DNA of 64,000 nt from a virus (Duplodnaviria > Caudoviricetes). Positions 8,695 to 22,672 of this stretch are shown piece after piece. The stretch covers positions 16,081 through 80,080 of IMG/VR virus record IMGVR_UViG_2747842506_000001; one strand, 5' to 3'. The position numbers and the translations under genes were made by a program. A model generated the notes under the pieces. The model was not told the origin of the DNA. It searched no databases and was given only the letters and a program-made list of their open reading frames with translations. Numbering within the stretch: position 1 is the first letter of the stretch; every line of letters begins with the position of its first letter.

Positions 8695-9164
8695 TATTTC
8701 TCGAAGCTCTTTCCACAGTGGGGGCAGGTGATTGTCTTGGGCTTCTTTTCCGGATTTTCCTCGTTGGTAAGGAAACTGTCGAAGTCCACGTCCTCGCTTG
8801 GGTTGAAGCCGAACTGTTCGACATCAAATGCGATTTCGTTGAGGAAGGACAATTCCTCATTGAGCTTCGTAAAATCCCAGCCACTAGCTTCCGCCACCTT
8901 ATTGTCGGCAAGTCGGAAGGCCTTGACCTGGTTTGGGGTGAGATCGTCCGCCATGATGCAGGGGATTTTCTCCATTTCCAGCTGCTGGGCGGCGAGGTAG
9001 CGGGTATGGCCGCAGACGATTACATTATCGCGGTCGATGATGATTGGAACCTTGAAGCCGAAATTCTTGATGCTGGCGACAACCTTTTCAATCGCCATCT
9101 CATTGTTGCGGGGGTTATTCTCGTATGGCTTTATGTCCGAAATTGGAACTTCTTTTATATCCAT
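8694..9164 (-). CDS. ParB/Srx N-terminal domain protein with C-terminal zinc ribbon
   Basis: IKPYENNPR, SIKNFGFKVPIIID, IVCGHTR, AFRLADNK; TCPHCG; TAATG stop-start coupling to dpdA. Confidence 0.88.
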   Translation of the reverse strand: MDIKEVPISDIKPYENNPRNNEMAIEKVVASIKNFGFKVPIIIDRDNVIVCGHTRYLAAQQLEMEKIPCIMADDLTPNQVKAFRLADNKVAEASGWDFTKLNEELSFLNEIAFDVEQFGFNPSEDVDFDSFLTNEENPEKKPKTITCPHCGKSFEK

Positions 9165-9375
9165 AAAAATTGAATCCTATGCAATTTCAATTAAATATAA
9201 TGCAATAATAATTGTTTGTAAATAAAATTATTTGCATAGAAGTCAAATTTTTGTGGGTTTACACTCAAAAAAAGAAAACCTAACTTTAGTTAGGTTTTTG
9301 AATGGGGCAGAACTCATTTATAAATCAAATGACTATTGACTATCCTTTGACTATCGAAAAATATCGGAGAAACAG

Positions 9376-9540
9376 ATGCCTGCTAAATGTCCCTGCTGTG
9401 GAGCGATCTTGACGGATGCACAGGTGCGATCCATTCATTCACAGATGATAGGGAGCCGACCGAAGCCTTCTTCCGCAGAAAACGGAAAGAAGGGAGGCAG
9501 GCCCAAGGGTTCAAAGAACAAGCCGAAGGAAAGTGCATAA
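9376..9540 (+). CDS. 54-aa protein with CPCC knuckle and AT-hook-like tail
   Basis: Manual translation MPAKCPCCGAILTDAQVRSIHSQMIGSRPKPSSAENGKKGGRPKGSKNKPKESA*; GGAGA RBS upstream and terminator immediately after. Confidence 0.65.
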   Translation: MPAKCPCCGAILTDAQVRSIHSQMIGSRPKPSSAENGKKGGRPKGSKNKPKESA

Positions 9541-15738: not shown

Positions 15739-16359
15739 CTATAGGATGAAGTGCCTGCCATCTTCCGTTAGCAGGGGCAATCCCTGTTCGCTTGAGAGGT
15801 ATCCGTTGTCGATGATGTTCTTGTCCTGTGCGACAGCGAGAATGAGCTTGTGTGGCTGTTCCACCGTTGCGAGCGCCTTTCCGGAAGTCAGTCTGAATGA
15901 AGCTCCGGGTAAGCCAAGGACGCCCGCAGGCGCCAACGAGGCGACAGTCTTGCGACTTAACTGTTTTCCCTTGGGTGTATAGACGAAAAAGACGCCATCA
16001 ACCTCGTCAAGGTATTGCGGGTTTCTGTCCTTTGATAGGTCCGCCGCATTCTGGATGATGTTCTGGGGCGTTCCCGCGGTACTCTGCTTGAAAAGGATTT
16101 TCAGCCTGTCGCGGTAGCTTTTGTCACTTTCGCCATCATCGCGCGGCAGGTTTCGCAGTTTTCCGATAATATCAAGCCAGTTCCCGTCAGCTTCTTCGAT
16201 ATTCGCGAAGTTCGCAAGTCTGTAGGAGCTGTCCTCGATGTCCTGAAAACAGTTGGTCACCTTCTCTATCATGGAGAGAAGGTTGGTGGATTCCTTGTAC
16301 TGGGTGATTACAAGGCTTTGCAGCTTTTTCCAGAGATTGTCTATATGTTGGAGAGCCAT
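15739..16359 (-). CDS. Baseplate wedge protein (DUF2612-like)
   Basis: Start MALQHID overlaps the baseplate J stop; ITQYKES, ADGNWLDIIGK, ESDKSYRDRL. Confidence 0.7.
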   Translation of the reverse strand: MALQHIDNLWKKLQSLVITQYKESTNLLSMIEKVTNCFQDIEDSSYRLANFANIEEADGNWLDIIGKLRNLPRDDGESDKSYRDRLKILFKQSTAGTPQNIIQNAADLSKDRNPQYLDEVDGVFFVYTPKGKQLSRKTVASLAPAGVLGLPGASFRLTSGKALATVEQPHKLILAVAQDKNIIDNGYLSSEQGLPLLTEDGRHFIL

Positions 16360-17339
16360 TATCCCTCCAGCGTTACGGAAACGTCCTCTGCAGCGATTGT
16401 AACCGTCGTGTCGTCGCTGACGGGGATTCTGCTGCTGGACCAGTTCTCGGAATAGACTTGTGCGACCTGGACCGTGATTGCATCCACGCCTGTGATTCCG
16501 CTGTAGATCGGGACGCACATTCTCTGCGGGATGATATCCTTTCCGCTGGTAAATTCATTTGAAGCCCAGTCTGAAATGAGCTGCTGGATTTTTTCAGCAT
16601 AGTCTGTGGGTAGGGCTTCCTCATCATATTGCGTGATGGAGACCTTGACCTTGTAGGCGATGCCCTTGATGAACTGGAAACAGACCTTGTGAAGGAAACC
16701 TGCCGCATCCCTGGCAATGCCGAAGCTGTCTCCTGTTCCCTTGATTCCCGCAGGCTTGCAGTTCCAAATCTTCTGGGCTATATAGCTTTCCACGCTGTTT
16801 TCGCGCGTGGCATCCTCAAGAATGGAAATCCAGTCCTTATCCGTCTGGTCAATCATGTCGGTTGAAAAGCTGGAAGGGACATAGATGGCGAAATGGTGGG
16901 GAGGAATACCTTCGGTTTCCACGTCCTCGCAGTTTTCCTTGAGGGCGACGCTGGCGGTGATGTTTTCGCGAAGGTAGGTCAGCATCCCGTTTGGAGTAGC
17001 CAAGCCCTCAAAGGTCGCCTGTTCAATTCTTTCACGCAGCGATTCGTCGCTTTCGCCCTCGTTTCGCGTAAGTCCAGCAATGGAGGCGAGCATATCCAGG
17101 AACGCGCCTGTTGCTGTGGAAACGTCGATGTTTGCGCCTACAGTCTGGATCGCCTGGGCAAGTTCCGTGTACATATAGGCGAGAAGGTCCACCAGCATCC
17201 CGTCGGGGGCGCTGGGGTCAAGGTTGATGCCTGCGCCAAAGACTTCCACAAAGGCCGTGGCTATGGCCTGGCGTATTTCACGAAAGCTCTTGATTGAAAT
17301 TCCGGAATTGCTGTCGATTGCGACTGCGCCTATCGCCAT
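16359..17339 (-). CDS. Baseplate J-like protein
   Basis: DPSAPDG, TATGAFLD, ESDESLRERI, GIPPHH, IAQKIWNCKPAGI. Confidence 0.8.
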   Translation of the reverse strand: MAIGAVAIDSNSGISIKSFREIRQAIATAFVEVFGAGINLDPSAPDGMLVDLLAYMYTELAQAIQTVGANIDVSTATGAFLDMLASIAGLTRNEGESDESLRERIEQATFEGLATPNGMLTYLRENITASVALKENCEDVETEGIPPHHFAIYVPSSFSTDMIDQTDKDWISILEDATRENSVESYIAQKIWNCKPAGIKGTGDSFGIARDAAGFLHKVCFQFIKGIAYKVKVSITQYDEEALPTDYAEKIQQLISDWASNEFTSGKDIIPQRMCVPIYSGITGVDAITVQVAQVYSENWSSSRIPVSDDTTVTIAAEDVSVTLEG

Positions 17340-17341
17340 AT

Positions 17342-17692
17342 CTAAAACGCTCCGATGATGTATTCATCGTCCTTGCTTCGGACGCTGAACTTTCCGGAAA
17401 TGTTTCTTCCGTCTGCCTTGATTTCTATGGAGACCACCTCCTTGACGCCATCGACTTTTTCGATCTTCTCGCGGAGTATTTTCTGGGCGACGTCAAGATG
17501 GTTCATGGGAAGCCCCGCGACCTTTTCAAGCCAGGGGACGCCATGCTCTCGGTTCGTGAATGCTTCGCCTTCTTCTGTCCTTAAAAGACAGTGAACCGCC
17601 TGCTGGACGCGCTTCTGCATACGCGAAATGCGGCAGATATGGTCTCCTTGCAGGAAAATGTCGTGGGAACTGTTGAGGGCCAATTCATTCAT
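17342..17692 (-). CDS. Baseplate/sheath-initiator protein (gp25/gp46-like)
   Basis: LRTEEGEAFTNREHGVPW, VDGVKEV; precedes baseplate J. Confidence 0.7.
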   Translation of the reverse strand: MNELALNSSHDIFLQGDHICRISRMQKRVQQAVHCLLRTEEGEAFTNREHGVPWLEKVAGLPMNHLDVAQKILREKIEKVDGVKEVVSIEIKADGRNISGKFSVRSKDDEYIIGAF

Positions 17693-17769
17693 TCCCCCTA
17701 AATTAGGCACGAAAAAGGCGCCCCTCAATGGAGCGCCAAACTAAGCCAAAAGACACCAAAATTTGAGAA

Positions 17770-17811
17770 AAATTCAAAAAGGACTTGACAATGTTTTTTT
17801 TTGTTTACATT
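17770..17811 (+). promoter_or_regulatory. Repeated moron promoter module, copy 4
   Basis: AAATTCAAAAAGGACTTGACAATG-T9-GTTTACATT. Confidence 0.7.
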
Positions 17812-17843
17812 TGAATGGTGGATGAAAAATTACCAAAATAATT

Positions 17844-19311
17844 GGCTCTTCATCAACATGTGTGGGTGGCTTCGCCACCCTTTTTTGTTGACTTTAGCCT
17901 AAATTAAACAAAAAATGGGCTATTTTCTAAAATTTAATCGCAAAAAAAAACAGAAGAAAAAAGCCCATGTCAAAATTATACAAATCCATCTTCAATGTCA
18001 ACGGCTGTACTGTCGTCAAGCAGGAGCAAACCGACACCACGGTCACCATCACGGTAAGACTCACCAAGGGCAACGCCAGCAGGTGCGGCTGTTGCGGGCG
18101 AAAAGGGAAACTCTACGACAACGGCCGGGAACAGAGGATATGGCGGACGCTCGATCTCGGCACGAAAATGGGCTTCATCAAGATGGACACCTACAGGGTG
18201 AAGTGCAGGAAGTGCGGCGTAAAAACCGTGAAGGTGCCGTGGGCAAGCCACAGGTCAGGCTTCACCGACGCCTTCGAGCAGCAGGTCGCATGGGCCGTAT
18301 GCAGCATGTCGAAAAAGGCTGTCGCAAAGCAGCTACGCATCGCCTGGAATACCGTGGGAGAAATCGCCGACCGCGTATGGGAACGCCTGGACACAAGGCC
18401 TATCAAGGCAGGCTGCATCTTCAGGCGCATAGGCATCGACGAGACCAGCTACAAGAAAGGGCACAAGTACATAACGGTGGTAGTGGATCACGACAGGCGC
18501 TGCGTGATCTGGGTGCACGAGGGCTACGGGAAGGAGGTGCTGGACATCTTCATGAGGGATCTCAGCGAAGAGCAGCGCAAGGGCGTGGAGCTTGTGACTT
18601 GTGATGGCGCCAAGTGGATAAGGTCAAGCATCGAGGAGTTCCTGCCCAATGCCGAACGGTGCGTGGACAGCTTCCATGTCGTGCAGTGGGCGACGGATGC
18701 CCTGGACAAGGTCCGTGTGGAAGCCTGGAGGGAGGCCCGCAAGGAACGCTGCAATCCAAAACGGGGCCGAGGCAGGCCCACGAAGGACAGCGTCCCGAAG
18801 GACCGCACCGCGGAGGGGATAAAGAACTCCAGGTACGCTCTGGGCAAGGCTCCGGAAAACCTTAACGAAAGCCAGCAGAGAAAAATAGAGCTCATAGCCA
18901 GCCGCTATCCGCGTCTCTACAGGGCATACCAGCTCAAGGAGGAGCTGCGCATCATCCTGAAGATGGGCTATGCCGATGCCAGGGAAAATCTGGACAGGTG
19001 GCTGTGGCGGGCAAGTCACTCACGCATCGGCCCAGTAAAGGATCTGTACGCAAAGATCAAGCGCAACTACGACGGAATCCTCAACACAATCAGGCTAGGC
19101 GTGTCAAACGCAAGGATCGAGGCGACGAACAACAAGATAAAGCTACTGATACGGACTGCCTATGGCTTCAGGAATATGAACAACATGCTGTCGCTGATAA
19201 TGTTGAGCTGTTCCTATGTAGATGTAAAGATAGCCTACGAATGGGAATCGGAATCGAGAGAATCATCTAGCAAGGCTGCCTAAATGCTTCCACACATGTT
19301 GATGATGCCTC
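17844..19311 (+). mobile_element. ISL3-family insertion sequence, copy 1 (1468 bp)
   Basis: Imperfect terminal IRs (GGCTCTTCATCAACATGTGTGG / CCACACATGTTGATGATGCCTC); 8-bp target duplication AAATAATT. Confidence 0.95.
17967..19283 (+). CDS. ISL3-family transposase
   Basis: N-terminal zinc finger, IGIDETSYKKGHKY, DSFHVV, SNARIEATNNKIK..AYGFR. Confidence 0.95.
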   Translation: MSKLYKSIFNVNGCTVVKQEQTDTTVTITVRLTKGNASRCGCCGRKGKLYDNGREQRIWRTLDLGTKMGFIKMDTYRVKCRKCGVKTVKVPWASHRSGFTDAFEQQVAWAVCSMSKKAVAKQLRIAWNTVGEIADRVWERLDTRPIKAGCIFRRIGIDETSYKKGHKYITVVVDHDRRCVIWVHEGYGKEVLDIFMRDLSEEQRKGVELVTCDGAKWIRSSIEEFLPNAERCVDSFHVVQWATDALDKVRVEAWREARKERCNPKRGRGRPTKDSVPKDRTAEGIKNSRYALGKAPENLNESQQRKIELIASRYPRLYRAYQLKEELRIILKMGYADARENLDRWLWRASHSRIGPVKDLYAKIKRNYDGILNTIRLGVSNARIEATNNKIKLLIRTAYGFRNMNNMLSLIMLSCSYVDVKIAYEWESESRESSSKAA

Positions 19312-19341
19312 AAATAATTGCAAAAAAATAGAGGATTGAAT

Positions 19342-19491
19342 ATGGGATTCTTCAAGTTATTAGTCGCCATTGGAGCTGCCGCATACGGAATTTCCCCGGT
19401 AGACATAATTCCCGATGTCGTTCCAGTTGTTGGCTGGGCGGATGATGTGGGGGTGATTTTGACTGCATTAGCTATTATAGCGAAAGCGTAG
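19342..19491 (+). CDS. DUF1232/YkvA-like small membrane protein (49 aa)
   Basis: Manual translation MGFFKLLVAIGAAAYGISPVDIIPDVVPVVGWADDVGVILTALAIIAKA*; SPxDxIPD..GxxDD motif; GAGG RBS. Confidence 0.8.
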   Translation: MGFFKLLVAIGAAAYGISPVDIIPDVVPVVGWADDVGVILTALAIIAKA

Positions 19492-19511
19492 AAAATAATA
19501 TATATTAGGGA

Positions 19512-19618
19512 TGAAGAACGTACTGAGTTAGTGGGACGAGGTTATCCACTTGAGCCAACTACTTCTTGAAAGCAAGTGCCTGTATGCAGGAGTTTACCGC
19601 CCTGCCTTACGTTCTTCA
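19512..19618 (+). ncRNA. Candidate structured ncRNA 1 (four-way junction)
   Basis: 11-bp closing stem TGAAGAACGTA/TACGTTCTTCA and three inner hairpins; TATATT at 19501; terminator at 19628-19657. Confidence 0.65.
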
Positions 19619-19792
19619 CTTTATTATAAAAGACGTTCCTGATGGAGCGCCTTTTTGTATGATTTTTTTTAACGTTAAATGCCTAGCAAACCCGCATTAA
19701 ACAAGGGTTTCGTTTTCTTTATGTTTTATAGGGGCTGTTTTTGAACCTGGATAAATCTTGATTTTCTCCAAGGAAAGTGGTATATTAGTGGT

Positions 19793-19890
19793 ATAGGATA
19801 TGCAAGTAAGCGTAAAGTCCGAAACGCTTGGGAATCTCTAGGAAACTAGAACTTCGTATGGTGAGGTAACGGGCCACCTGCATGTCCTAT
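19793..19890 (+). ncRNA. Candidate structured ncRNA 2 (same fold, diverged sequence)
   Basis: 12-bp closing stem ATAGGATATGCA/TGCATGTCCTAT; hairpins AAGCGT/ACGCTT, TCTAG-GAAA-CTAGA, GGTG/CACC; promoter TTGATT-N17-TATATT; T-rich tail. Confidence 0.65.
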
Positions 19891-20009
19891 TTTGTTTTAT
19901 TTAGGTTGTTTTGATGCTTAGGTAAATCTTAGGGTGATTTTCACCTTTTTGTCGTCAATTTCTGTAGTGACCATTTGCATTTCTCTAAGAAAAGTGGTAT
20001 GTTGATGGT

Positions 20010-20120
20010 TGAAGAACGTATGAGTTAGTGGAAAGAGGTTTACCACTTCGGAAGCTAAGCTTTTTGAACGAAGCCACAGTACCGTATGCAAGAGTTCGCC
20101 GCCTTGTCTTACGTTCTTCA
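20010..20120 (+). ncRNA. Candidate structured ncRNA 3 (paralog of ncRNA 1)
   Basis: Same 11-bp closing stem and AGTGG/CCACT hairpin as ncRNA 1; promoter TTGCAT-N17-TATGTT; terminator at 20130-20160. Confidence 0.65.
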
Positions 20121-20169
20121 CTTTATTATAAAAGACGTTCTTGATGGAGCGTCTTTTTTTGTATAACTG

Positions 20170-20856
20170 AAAACTACCGGCTAGGCCGGTAGTTCCGTAA
20201 AAGCCTTCTGGCGGTCATGAAAAAAGAAATCCTTTGATTAATATTGAAATGCGGTCTGCCAACTGCATCACAATAAAATCAAAGGATTTAAAATGAATGA
20301 TAGAAATAAATCAACAGCCCATACCACATGGAATTGTAAGTACCATATCGTGTTCGCACCCAAGTTTAGAAGGAAAATTCTATACAATCAGAAACGAGAG
20401 CTTGTAGGAAGAATTCTCAGAAAATTGTGCGAATGGAAAGATGTGGAAATAATAGAGGCCGAAGTCTGTCCAGACCATATTCACATGCTGGTCGCCATAC
20501 CGCCGAAACTCTCCGTTTCGAGTTTCATGGGGTATTTGAAAGGAAAGAGCAGCCTGGAATTGTATGACACGATTCCTGAATTGCAGAATAAGTACAGGAA
20601 CCGAGTCTTTTGGTGCCGAGGATATTATGTTGACACGGCAGGAAAAAACGCAGACCGAATTAAGGCGTATATCCGGCAACAGTTAGAGGAGGACAAACTA
20701 GGAGAACAACAGTCAATGTTTGGCAAGTAGTGCCCGTTTACGGGCGGCCTAGTAAGGACCCTAGCAGGTGGCAGATCGACGTGCGTGCCCTTGCACGCAG
20801 CTAGTATTGTAGGGCTACGCCCGTATATGAAGAACCACCGGCTTCGCCGGTGGGTG
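20170..20856 (+). mobile_element. IS200-type element (tnpA only), copy 1; ends approximate
   Basis: Subterminal hairpins ACTACCGGC-TAG-GCCGGTAGT and CCACCGGC-TTC-GCCGGTGG flank a Y1 transposase gene. Confidence 0.85.
20293..20730 (+). CDS. tnpA: IS200/IS605 Y1 (HUH) transposase
   Basis: CKYHIVFAPKFRR, DHIHML, LKGKSS, FWCRGYYV, YIRQQ. Confidence 0.95.
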   Translation: MNDRNKSTAHTTWNCKYHIVFAPKFRRKILYNQKRELVGRILRKLCEWKDVEIIEAEVCPDHIHMLVAIPPKLSVSSFMGYLKGKSSLELYDTIPELQNKYRNRVFWCRGYYVDTAGKNADRIKAYIRQQLEEDKLGEQQSMFGK

Positions 20857-20906
20857 CCTTTTTTGTTTAAATCGGTATTTTTTGAGATTAGGGAAATCTT
20901 TTGTCC

Positions 20907-21725
20907 TTATACAATAAAAAAGTCGTCTTCTTTGGCGTTGGGTTCATAGCTGCAATCAACTTGGTTTTTGCTGAGGGGAAATTCTGTGTTAAACCTGCAG
21001 TTCTTGTAAACTGATTTAGATTCGTGGGGTTTGTCGAGGATGATTGCGCCTTTAGGAAAAAAGAAGTTGCAAGAGTGAAAATTTGCGTCTCCTTTTCCTC
21101 CAATGCAGAATGTGTAACGCCCCTGTTCGTCTGAACCAAAAAAGCGACATTTTGTAAAGATTGTTTTTTCAACGATATTATCCAATAAGGTAACTGGGCC
21201 AACAGGATGAAATTCGTCGATAGTGTAAAAGTTGCTGAAAAGACAATGATCAAAAGTTGCGAAAGATTCCTTTCCAATTATGACGCCATCGTTTGGTATG
21301 CAACAAAATGCACATTTTGAAAAGTTAGCGCTTGAACCTTCGTCGATATATGCACAAATGGGATCATTTGCGCCATCGGAAGATAAGCGACAGTTTGAGA
21401 AATTGCCTGATCCTCCATTGGATATGTTGAGGCTTACCTCGTCAAGGCCTTCGATCAGAATATCTCTAAAATCACCAAAAGAATCCTTTCCGTCGATGCG
21501 AACTTTAAAAAATTCTTCTTCTTTTTCGTCTCTCTCAACAAAGAGGCCTTTGCCGCCATTTTGAATAGAGACTCCCTCATAACAAAAAGTGCATTTAAGA
21601 AAAGTTGGCGATGCTGGTCCATCAATAACAACTTCGTCCAAAAATACACAGTGGTCGTATATATCACAACCATTGTTAATAACGAATCGTTCTTCAAAGA
21701 TTTTTCCTTCGATTTTTTTCTGCAT
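20907..21725 (-). CDS. Acidic protein with probable right-handed beta-helix repeats
   Basis: Recurring 'xFxxCxF' units (TFLKCTF, NFSNCRL, NFSKCAF, TFDHCLF, IFTKCRF, NFHSCNF, VYKNCRF); own AGGAG RBS. Confidence 0.65.
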   Translation of the reverse strand: MQKKIEGKIFEERFVINNGCDIYDHCVFLDEVVIDGPASPTFLKCTFCYEGVSIQNGGKGLFVERDEKEEEFFKVRIDGKDSFGDFRDILIEGLDEVSLNISNGGSGNFSNCRLSSDGANDPICAYIDEGSSANFSKCAFCCIPNDGVIIGKESFATFDHCLFSNFYTIDEFHPVGPVTLLDNIVEKTIFTKCRFFGSDEQGRYTFCIGGKGDANFHSCNFFFPKGAIILDKPHESKSVYKNCRFNTEFPLSKNQVDCSYEPNAKEDDFFIV

Positions 21726-21970
21726 GATGAACTCCTTTGCTGGACGGTCGCTTGATTAACATATATTTTTTTTGTGACAAATAATGACTTGCTTGATTCT
21801 GTTGGAATGTTTTTTGAAGTCTGGAAATAAATAAGCCCCTTCAAAAGAAGGGGCTTGTAAAGGCTGTGCCAAACTACACACAGTTTGGCTCTACATGAAT
21901 CTATAGAGGTGTGCCTCAAATCCATGCAGCTTCTCTAATTTACCTTTTCCTGTGACAAATGTCAATCCCA

Positions 21971-22672
21971 TTATGGCTTCGGCGGCGAATATGCCATAGG
22001 AGGTGCAGGAGCACCAGTTGCAGCTGTTGCGTGGGTATGGCCCAGGAACGACAGAGTAGGCGTGGAAAAGTCCGCGCCTTTTACGTTTCCCGACGCTTCT
22101 ACATCGCCCTTGCTGCTGATGTTTCCATCGGAGCTGATTTCCCCTGTGGTTTCAATGTCGCCATCTACGCTTAAAGCTCCTGTGATTTCCACGTTTTCCG
22201 CAGAAAGTTCAACTTTTTTCGCATTTATTTTGACATTTCCCTCACGATCAACCGATATAGTGGTGGAGGCGTCCTCGTTTATACGCCTCATGGGAATCGC
22301 CAGAAGATTCAGAAGGTCATTCCCGGAAAAACTCATGGGGAGCGCAGCATCTTCGCTCCAGGTTTCCTTCTTCCAGTTTCGTATATCGCGACTGCTGCTT
22401 ATGCAAAGAACGGTATCGCCTGCATCCAGCTCATATTCCACATGAACTGTCTTTGTGCCGATCCATAGGACTGGCACATTACGGATTGCCATCAGCTTGT
22501 CGTCCTTCAAAGGTTCCATTTGCATATTGCGCAGACAGTTTCTCACGCTGGGACGAACATTGACTGTTCCATCATCGTTTACGGCATCAATGACAGCGGG
22601 GAAGGCTGTTTCAAAGTCCTCCATCTTATTGTCAAAGAAACGGTCCAAAATTTTTGCGATGCTGTTAGCCAT
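21971..22672 (-). CDS. Baseplate central spike protein (Gp138/gpV-like)
   Basis: ETAFPAVI, NVPV, GDTVL..SSRDI..W, beta-helical repeats and terminal HTH metal-binding motif. Confidence 0.8.
   Translation of the reverse strand: MANSIAKILDRFFDNKMEDFETAFPAVIDAVNDDGTVNVRPSVRNCLRNMQMEPLKDDKLMAIRNVPVLWIGTKTVHVEYELDAGDTVLCISSSRDIRNWKKETWSEDAALPMSFSGNDLLNLLAIPMRRINEDASTTISVDREGNVKINAKKVELSAENVEITGALSVDGDIETTGEISSDGNISSKGDVEASGNVKGADFSTPTLSFLGHTHATAATGAPAPPMAYSPPKP

Follow-up and report, generated by a model that had tools for sequence, protein, structure and literature searches.

The window analysed here is a stretch of 64,000 nucleotides (nt) from an 80-kb IMG/VR provirus record (IMGVR_UViG_2747842506_000001, positions 16,081 to 80,080), whose host is placed in Fibrobacter by sequence-pattern matches in named genome records. 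Between an ISL3 and an IS200 element, in a region with tail and baseplate-like genes on both sides, it carries three consecutive units on the + strand (Table 1); covariance-model matches place them where a preliminary description, made from the letters of the window, had seen an array of three structured RNAs. The only open reading frames (ORFs) overlapping the units are of 44 amino acids (aa; 19566-19700, +) and 67 aa (19918-20121, -), and the latter is the remnant of a gpG gene start continued by the antisense strand of unit 3. With a probability of roughly 0.9, each unit encodes, as a self-contained gene, a small RNA of ~100-110 nt with a four-way junction and its own start and end signals. 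Judged by their sequences, the units are a new RNA family, and no known family tested fits them.

Fold, covariation and loop-loop contact

The fold is a four-way junction in which a closing helix of 11 pairs (P1) encloses two hairpins of 5 pairs each (P2 and P4, with loops L2 and L4) and a variable hairpin (P3); each unit folded alone gives three inner hairpins within a closing stem of 11-12 pairs. The first outside homolog was one viral contig, detected by searching viral contigs with two unit-specific patterns. Covariance model R1 was built with a hand-drawn structure from units 1 and 3 and one viral-contig homolog, unit 2 being left out. R1 nevertheless found unit 2 over its full length, as the top non-training match in 71.7 kb (both strands, filters off); unit 2 therefore shares the architecture despite its different stem sequences, which upholds the common fold proposed in the preliminary description. 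A second model, R2, was built from 15 matches. The covariance-model search of genomes and metagenomes that the same description had suggested did return homologs, and the family now comprises 27 distinct sequences from 49 aligned matches in Fibrobacter genomes, viral contigs and metagenomes.

Helix statistics were taken from the 21 distinct rows of alignment A8, which was fitted to the model, so that they lean towards the structure: 91.0% of helix cells were paired against 68.4 ± 1.3 in shuffles, both sides had changed in a compensatory manner in 25 of the 30 base pairs, and the covariation score reached 0.603 against 0.216 for shuffled alignments (0/500 shuffles reach it) and 0.06-0.10 with partners slid. 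Helix cells contained 28 G.U against 5 A.C combinations, all five of the latter in the poorly aligned P3, and this excess of G.U identifies the + strand of the window as the RNA strand. Conserved bases cluster at the junction, in J1/2 (xGAGUWAG), J3/4 (UAU) and the start of L4. P3 varies in both length and sequence, with loops GAAA, UUCG or others, and is the least conserved part.

The 5-mer just 5' of the P4 3' strand is complementary to a 5-mer in L2, so that the complementarity first noticed in the three window units holds in the register then described and extends to further specificities. The L2/L4 pairs are GAGGU/ACCGC, GAGGU/GCCGC, GAGAU/GUCGC, GAGAC/GUCGC, GAGGC/GCCGA, AUGGU/ACCGU, AUGGU/ACCGA, GUCCG/CGGGC, GUCCG/CGGAC, UUCCG/CGGGC, GCCG/CGGU and UCCUC/GAGGA. 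The contact thereby co-varies through at least three unrelated 5-mer pairs, in addition to single-step changes. Loop statistics were scripted with a fixed-anchor 5-mer score, a 13-sequence MAFFT alignment having set L2 of type 2 one column off. When L4 was dealt among the loop classes, the observed value of 3.96 compared with 3.01 ± 0.20 (0/20000 dealings reach it), and a second test, with one row mis-parsed, gave 3.81 against 2.95 ± 0.18 (0/20000), both results being inflated by kinship among the sequences.

Table 1. RNA units and other features of the unit stretch (window positions).
Feature	Position	Strand	Evidence or remark
Unit 1 -10-like element TATATT	19501-19506	+	Sequence; upstream context of all members; without -35
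Unit 1, type 1 RNA	19512-19618	+	R1, 111 bits; R2, 99.8 bits
Unit 1 P1	19512-19522 with 19608-19618	+	Alignment A8
Unit 1 loop 5-mers	L2 GAGGT 19538-19542; L4 ACCGC 19596-19600	+	Alignment A8
Hairpin terminator 3' of unit 1	19634-19655	+	Terminator scan
Decayed copy of 35-nt CRISPR-like repeat	19723-19757	+	8 mismatches against related-genome copy; 0 matches in 5 window shuffles
Unit 2 promoter TTGATT-N17-TATATT with TG extension	19758-19786	+	Promoter scan and member comparison
Unit 2, type 2 RNA	19792-19891	+	R1, 20.9 bits, E ~0.003; R2, 59.2 bits
Unit 2 loop 5-mers	L2 GTCCG 19817-19821; L4 CGGGC 19870-19874	+	
Second, more decayed repeat copy (GTTTTATTTAGG...GGTAAATC)	19894-19928	+	Read by eye
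Remnant: first 18 codons of Mu-like gpG (virion morphogenesis) gene	19927-19980	-	Divergent from unit 3
Unit 3 promoter TTGCAT-N17-TATGTT	19975-20003	+	Sequence; conserved in family
Unit 3, type 1 RNA	20010-20120	+	R1, 124.1 bits; R2, 106.8 bits
Unit 3 loop 5-mers	L2 GAGGT 20035-20039; L4 GCCGC 20098-20102	+	
Hairpin terminator 3' of unit 3	20130-20160	+	Terminator scan: 12 pairs, then T-run
ISL3 transposase	17967-19283		Flanks unit stretch
DUF1232 ORF, 49 aa	19342-19491		Pfam; just upstream of unit 1
IS200 5' structure STnc490	20172-20285		Rfam 15 match, beyond unit 3 terminator
IS200 tnpA	20293-20730		3' of STnc490

Transcription signals and setting in the window

A TTGCWT-N17-TATATT promoter was read by eye in 24 of 26 members, with the predicted start at the first base of P1, and a T-run stands at the end of P1 in 22 of the 26; three members, units 1 and 3 among them, have a separate hairpin terminator instead. 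In unit 2 the T-run directly follows P1. Since unit 1 has no -35 element and the DUF1232 ORF ends just upstream, this unit may be read through from that ORF. In the extra terminator the sequence of the P1 3' strand recurs within the 5' arm, as ACGTTCTT (an 8-mer) in unit 3 and ACGTTC in unit 1 (19608-19618 with 19630-19645 in unit 1; 20110-20120 with 20130-20145 in unit 3), so that the P1 5' strand could pair with either of two partners. At another locus (L107:1027-1218, -) two units stand head to tail under one promoter; the first is without a U-run, and the second has a short P1 of 6 bp and a U-run at its end. With a single promoter and a U-run only after the second unit, this locus may give a dimeric transcript.

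The 35-nt repeat at 19723-19757 is of the kind that bounds cassettes in Fibrobacter arrays (see below), and the second copy was missed by a scan allowing 10 mismatches. Two metatranscriptome contigs carry 204-222 other letters in place of 19742/19759 to 19894, from which it appears that the unit 2 cassette has been swapped in other samples; the joints in these contigs end exactly at 19894, the start of the second repeat copy. The gpG remnant (tblastn, 67% over 18 aa, E 0.004) is weak alone and its pattern is matched in seven other loci.

Both insertion sequences are later arrivals: the flanks of ISL3 (17844-19311), which sits immediately upstream of the DUF1232 ribosome site, and of IS200 (20167-20858) are joined without them in a related Fibrobacter genome. 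Homology to that genome jumps from window position 20166 to 20859, and the same units are present there without IS200 or ISL3.

Distribution and comparison with known RNA classes

R1 matches occurred in 11 of 101 Fibrobacter species genomes and R2 matches in 15 of 101, and one further Fibrobacter genome with the RNA (G010) was found with filters off. Among 151 genomes sampled from the phylum, R2 matched seven, of which six were Fibrobacter genomes already counted and one was new. A promoter-pattern search returned six viral loci (one new, without the RNA) and 32 metagenome loci; the RNA was present in 17 of the 33 promoter-pattern loci searched. The 80-kb record itself contained no further copy or complement of the units, and by blastn a phage collection gave no match to them. 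A partial copy lies ~100 nt upstream of a full unit at locus L029 (1306-1398, +; 21 bits, E 0.009); its 3' half, from P4 to P1, is of type 1 and its 5' half is unrelated.

With Rfam 15 (4227 models, gathering scores) the sole match in the window was STnc490, with none on the units; matches to the units at E <= 10 were at chance level (AdoCbl-II, 15.4 bits against a gathering score of 36.5; mir-654, 14.5 bits), and at E <= 1 there was no unit match in 11 other loci. ARAGORN called no transfer RNA (tRNA) or transfer-messenger RNA (tmRNA) gene in the whole window. Full-text searches of the literature, which covered main texts and included part of PMC5737381, supplementary motif lists lying outside their range, gave no description of the RNA.

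Individual classes were rejected on structural and contextual grounds. A tRNA or tmRNA is contradicted by the 11 pairs of P1 against the 7-bp acceptor stem, by the unconserved P3 loop and by the absence of ARAGORN calls, and the earlier idea of a tRNA-like decoy is likewise unsupported: its anticodon-like arm would be P3, where conservation is lowest and the loop varies freely. An IS200 5' structure, which the preliminary description had itself listed as a possible refutation, is set aside since STnc490 starts past the unit 3 terminator and a related genome has the units without IS200. A phi29-type pRNA has no Rfam model match here, the large terminase is present and 17 related head modules are without the RNA. 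Against a riboswitch, every unit is closed by a terminator, after which comes either a further promoter or a gene in convergent orientation. A type III toxin-antitoxin RNA (ToxI-like) is at odds with ~105-nt units that have their own promoters and no recurrent nuclease neighbour; likewise, the neighbours of the homologs include no recurrent nuclease or toxin gene, which leaves the previously suggested orphan antitoxin mimic unsupported. A tracrRNA or repeat-mimic anti-CRISPR received no support from RNAduplex, in which seven unit-repeat pairs, taken with the repeat and its complement, gave z-scores of -1.8 to +1.4 against shuffles. Because every testable known family failed, the RNA was filed as new, and the earlier proposal of an undescribed phage RNA family carried as a diversified set holds up in comparison with both Rfam 15 and the literature searched.

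A cargo slot in Mu-like prophages

In one clade of Mu-like Fibrobacter prophages the gene order is large terminase, Portal_Mu, Phage_Mu_F (MuF), the RNA on the opposite strand, and Phage_tail_S (Mu gpG-like; gpG). The RNA was found in 10/10 loci whose gpG is at least 55% identical (four Fibrobacter genomes, five viral contigs and the first viral contig), some of which may be the same phage lineage. In these loci the RNA -35 element stands right against the start codon of gpG, whose ribosome site falls within the promoter spacer. The absence of an adjacent cognate protein, noted earlier, thus holds in the window but not for the family, whose native place between MuF and gpG is fixed.

The RNA was absent from 17 distant full-length gpG loci (26-36% identity; E <= 1, filters off) and likewise from two distant viral loci. 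Distant loci retain a MuF-gpG gap of 130-300 nt, and an antisense promoter of the same kind was present in 12/12 distant gaps read, followed by differing cargo: non-coding-looking sequences with terminators, a 75-aa protein in seven loci, and a 58-aa acidic protein in two. The same promoter with different cargo points to the MuF-gpG slot as a hot spot for accessory cargo, of which the RNA is one kind. Its conserved promoter and T-run, its site between two late genes and the other cargo in relatives are, at the level of sequence, those of a phage moron.

The 75-aa protein is phrog_6473 (function unknown), which also adjoins RNA units in arrays; the ESM Atlas gave no usable match for it. Cargo proteins lie at L055:1209-1436(-), L072:1257-1433(-), L046:4064-5027 and L038:9062-9280, and the 75-aa one also occurs in three tandem copies. 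Other non-coding-looking cargo of ~100 nt with terminators is of at least two kinds (L054, L057, L059, L060, L064 and L067), one sharing GGTAGCCGGGTG and another CGATAGTCATG, with no Rfam match. Eight of 10 proteins scanned from cassette loci, mostly small ORFs, had no Pfam match. A GNAT acetyltransferase was considered as a partner and rejected, being beside the RNA in only two loci; at L036:644-1090(+) and L043:6282-6728(+) it is followed by a DUF4421 protein and stands ~200 nt from the RNA cassette, divergently oriented.

Repeat arrays and captured copies

Units outside Mu-like prophages still have, upstream, remnants of the gpG start and, downstream, remnants of the MuF end, and a 35-nt direct repeat (GTCTTAYAGGGGCTCTTTWTGAGC...AAAAC) bounds them on either side. 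Its copies are sharp-edged, point one way within a locus and are spaced 190-3100 nt apart, and the inner palindrome of the repeat shows compensatory changes between genomes. Its 21-nt core was found in 82 of 101 Fibrobacter species genomes, with almost none for the reversed control. In one genome, nine identical copies begin 60 nt after cas1-cas2, and TIGR03639 assigns the Cas1 of that array to type II (284.6 bits; cut-off 120); four more arrays adjoin Cas1 genes, either complete or broken. In four of these five genomes no Cas9 was detected, and the fifth has a separate cas9-cas1 locus. Long-spaced cas1-cas2 arrays were undescribed in the main texts covered by the full-text literature searches.

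Array inserts (in L030, which is Fibrobacter genome G001, contig 12, 1938-10570, and in L034, L036, L038, L039, L041 and L046) are either pieces of phage DNA cut at repeats or small cassettes of a promoter plus a gene. An inter-repeat segment of a related genome, 3.86 kb long, matches window 17180-22083 at 95-97% identity, lacking ISL3 and IS200 and with a phrog_6473 gene and two further units added; the homology ends exactly at two repeats, cutting two window ORFs. Another such segment is a 3.07-kb Mu-like fragment that reaches from inside the portal gene to beyond gpG. Both segments look like captured phage fragments. At the other extreme, several cassettes are trimmed to promoter plus RNA alone, at 175-187 nt. 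The UCCUC/GAGGA type is known from cassettes only, and keeps the fold with two unrelated P3 hairpins.

In L030, an inter-repeat segment contains an ORF with an ADP-ribosyltransferase exoenzyme domain (9007-9501, -), and the array is followed by an MmeI-type restriction-modification gene and a leucine-rich-repeat protein. In four genomes (L039, L040, L041 and L033) the array with an RNA cassette occupies one host site, from a thioredoxin-TldD/PmbA block to clpB.

Discussion

In the reading that we prefer, a sigma-70-type promoter would start transcription at the first base of P1, and the P1 3' strand with its U-run, or an added hairpin, would end the RNA. P1 very probably closes the fold from both ends, the P2 and P4 loops pair over ~5 bases, and P3 stays free. 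The home of the RNA is the antisense cargo slot between the MuF and gpG head genes, where it would behave as a moron, and the window units are cassettes of this kind brought together in the tail region of a different phage. As to function, we tentatively propose, at somewhat less than even odds, that the RNA acts in trans through its folded core, a protein or small-ligand binding site shaped by the loop-loop clamp; by analogy with riboswitch aptamers, the L2/L4 contact would hold P2 against P4 and thereby shape the junction into the predicted site. A folded-core function is favoured by the conservation of the junction, by a loop contact that is kept only as complementarity and by the free P3, and further by the lack of a complementary target in the window phage and by protein genes that replace the RNA in the slot. 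Because the RNA is swappable accessory cargo, conflict between phage and host or between phages is the likely arena.

Several observations weigh against this reading, in its structural part as well as in its functional one. The family is narrow, occurring in 15/101 Fibrobacter species genomes, in G010 and in one more of the 151 phylum genomes. Folded singly, the sequences reach modest z-scores (-2.4 to -3.7), with similar values on the opposite strand, and unit 2 was misaligned when MAFFT and RNAalifold were given just the three units (-2.27 kcal/mol), in place of which the model-based alignment was used. In the loop contact, type 1 retains an A.G mismatch at position 2, some pairs have just 3-4 matches, and a longest-duplex measure fails to discriminate cognate (4.9) from non-cognate (4.2) and shuffled (4.0) loops; the covariation, seen in sequences, would fit pairing between molecules as well as within one. 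The preliminary description had given each unit promoter and terminator signals of its own, with a full promoter in two, which family-wide conservation bears out, but unit 1 has no -35 element and a consensus promoter scan of the window found three sites against 3.9 ± 2.1 expected, with no excess. Metatranscriptome contigs cover 19352-19507, 19635-19742 and 19888-20072, that is, the DUF1232 ORF and the spacers but not the units; the three runs held small shares of the stretch and such contigs can derive from DNA, and one raw-read run gave 0 reads. Among the neighbours of homologs, no protein family recurs beside the RNA except MuF and gpG. Many copies outside Mu-like prophages lie in captured fragments and may be passengers. 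Lastly, the native RNA is exactly antisense to the MuF-gpG late mRNA, so that a plain antisense role is possible, though unlikely.

Such an antisense regulator would pair with the MuF-gpG late mRNA of its own phage and tune or silence the head genes, while copies elsewhere would block superinfecting Mu-like relatives. In each of the 10 close loci the RNA fills the gap on the opposite strand, with its -35 element against the gpG start codon and the gpG ribosome site in its promoter spacer; moreover, the arrays combine variants matching different Mu-like phages; for instance, the native RNA of viral contig L078 is almost the same as unit B in the array of the related genome. Yet cis-antisense pairing needs no compensatory changes, whereas the fold is kept and G.U pairs occur on this strand only; mutual pairing of L2 and L4 hides the loops that antisense RNAs normally use on their targets; the predicted transcript ends at the MuF stop codon and begins ~25 nt short of the gpG ribosome site; and protein genes under the same promoter in distant phages imply that the slot does not require an antisense RNA. 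We regard this alternative as unlikely. The C4/CI immunity RNAs of P1, P7 and P4 (Rfam RF01695), which block related superinfecting phages, offer a comparison: C4 is cut from a longer transcript and its loops pair with target mRNA sites. The present RNA is likewise a small structured prophage RNA with specificity variants and a possible tie to immunity, but its loops pair with each other, its unit is the predicted primary transcript and it has no Rfam match.

It is rather improbable that the window units are inactive passengers brought in by recombination or repeat capture, with only the native Mu-like copies functional. The decayed repeat copies that separate the units, the gpG remnant before unit 3, the homologous segment that in a related genome is a phage fragment cut by repeats at both ends, and the different cassette between the same two repeats in other samples would all be expected of passengers. 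The fold at full length, the promoters and the terminators are nevertheless kept in all three units, and neither the trimming of several cassettes to promoter and RNA nor the fold of the cassette-only UCCUC/GAGGA type, maintained with two unrelated P3 hairpins, is what such a history would predict.

A broader and distinctly speculative extension, which we consider doubtful, would place the units in an arms race that sets Mu-like phages against a Fibrobacter cas1-cas2 system, derived from type II and without Cas9, that would store phage fragments of 0.2-3.9 kb between CRISPR-like repeats, entire promoter-plus-RNA units among them; the RNA would be either a phage RNA that soaks up a host defence protein or signalling molecule, or a captured phage gene that the host expresses, from the gene's own promoter, against incoming relatives. 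Two known arrangements of phage cargo resemble that of the units. PeSLs are promoter/stem-loop cassettes that shuffle extra genes in T4-type phages; here, too, small autonomous cassettes, varying from one related phage to the next, are delimited by short repeated elements, except that the repeat is a 35-nt CRISPR-like unit which in some genomes follows type II cas1-cas2. The second arrangement is the anti-CRISPR locus that Bondy-Denomy et al. 2013 reportedly described in the Pseudomonas Mu-like head operon, adjoining gene G. It shares with the present slot a fixed site by the G gene, a promoter of its own and swappable small cargo; in contrast, the Fibrobacter slot lies between F and G on the opposite strand, has cargo that includes RNAs and is known from sequence alone, and there is no pairing or resemblance between the units and the local CRISPR-like repeat.

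A self-assembling RNA, in which L2 and L4 would pair between molecules into dimers or rings as a scaffold for head assembly or an RNA-only particle, is improbable as a whole. Complementary, co-varying loops, a long stem formed from both RNA ends, a gene within the head-morphogenesis module and a covariation that fits intermolecular pairing equally well all agree with it. On the other hand, the RNA is missing from all 17 distant Mu-like prophages, although their head genes are the same, and is thus not needed for assembly, and linker lengths permit an intramolecular contact (a geometric estimate, uncomputed). The nearest parallel, the phi29 pRNA (Rfam RF00044), has ~120 nt and loops that pair between molecules, and is essential in phages without a classical terminase. 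The units resemble it as phage RNAs of similar size whose two ends pair in a long helix and which have two complementary, co-varying loops, but differ in that these phages have a large terminase, that relatives with the same head genes are without the RNA and that the pRNA model gives no match.

Purine and lysine riboswitch aptamers, whose multi-helix junctions are organised by a distal loop-loop contact, resemble the units in their junction-conserved bases, their two hairpins set side by side via complementary loops and their closure by P1; unlike them, the unit is a predicted stand-alone transcript without a downstream gene or expression platform, has a four-way rather than a three- or five-way junction, and matches no riboswitch in Rfam. 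That P1 serves as both aptamer closing stem and terminator stem, a bound ligand stopping transcription that would otherwise read through antisense into MuF and portal, is very improbable: the aptamer-like architecture, the U-run directly after P1 in 22/26 members and the two partners that the ACGTTCTT repeat in the extra terminators of units 1 and 3 offers to the P1 5' strand would suit it, but there is no co-directional gene downstream, the strong extra terminators of the array units argue for a fixed end, the context suggests no ligand and the 8-mer repeat is confined to one sub-lineage.

The family thus adds a compact RNA fold, with covariation down to a tertiary loop-loop contact, that is absent from Rfam and from the literature searched; folds of this grade have usually proved to be aptamers, ribozymes or specific partners of proteins. 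It also marks an antisense slot that has a fixed place within the head operon of Mu-like phages of Fibrobacter and in which RNAs and small proteins are swapped under one promoter, and the cargo of this slot is a candidate list of phage-host conflict genes in an important fibre-degrading rumen genus. The repeat arrays with kilobase phage inserts, which lie beside a type II cas1-cas2 without cas9, are possibly a new kind of array and, if this is true, the long inserts would bear on what Cas1-Cas2 integrases can capture.

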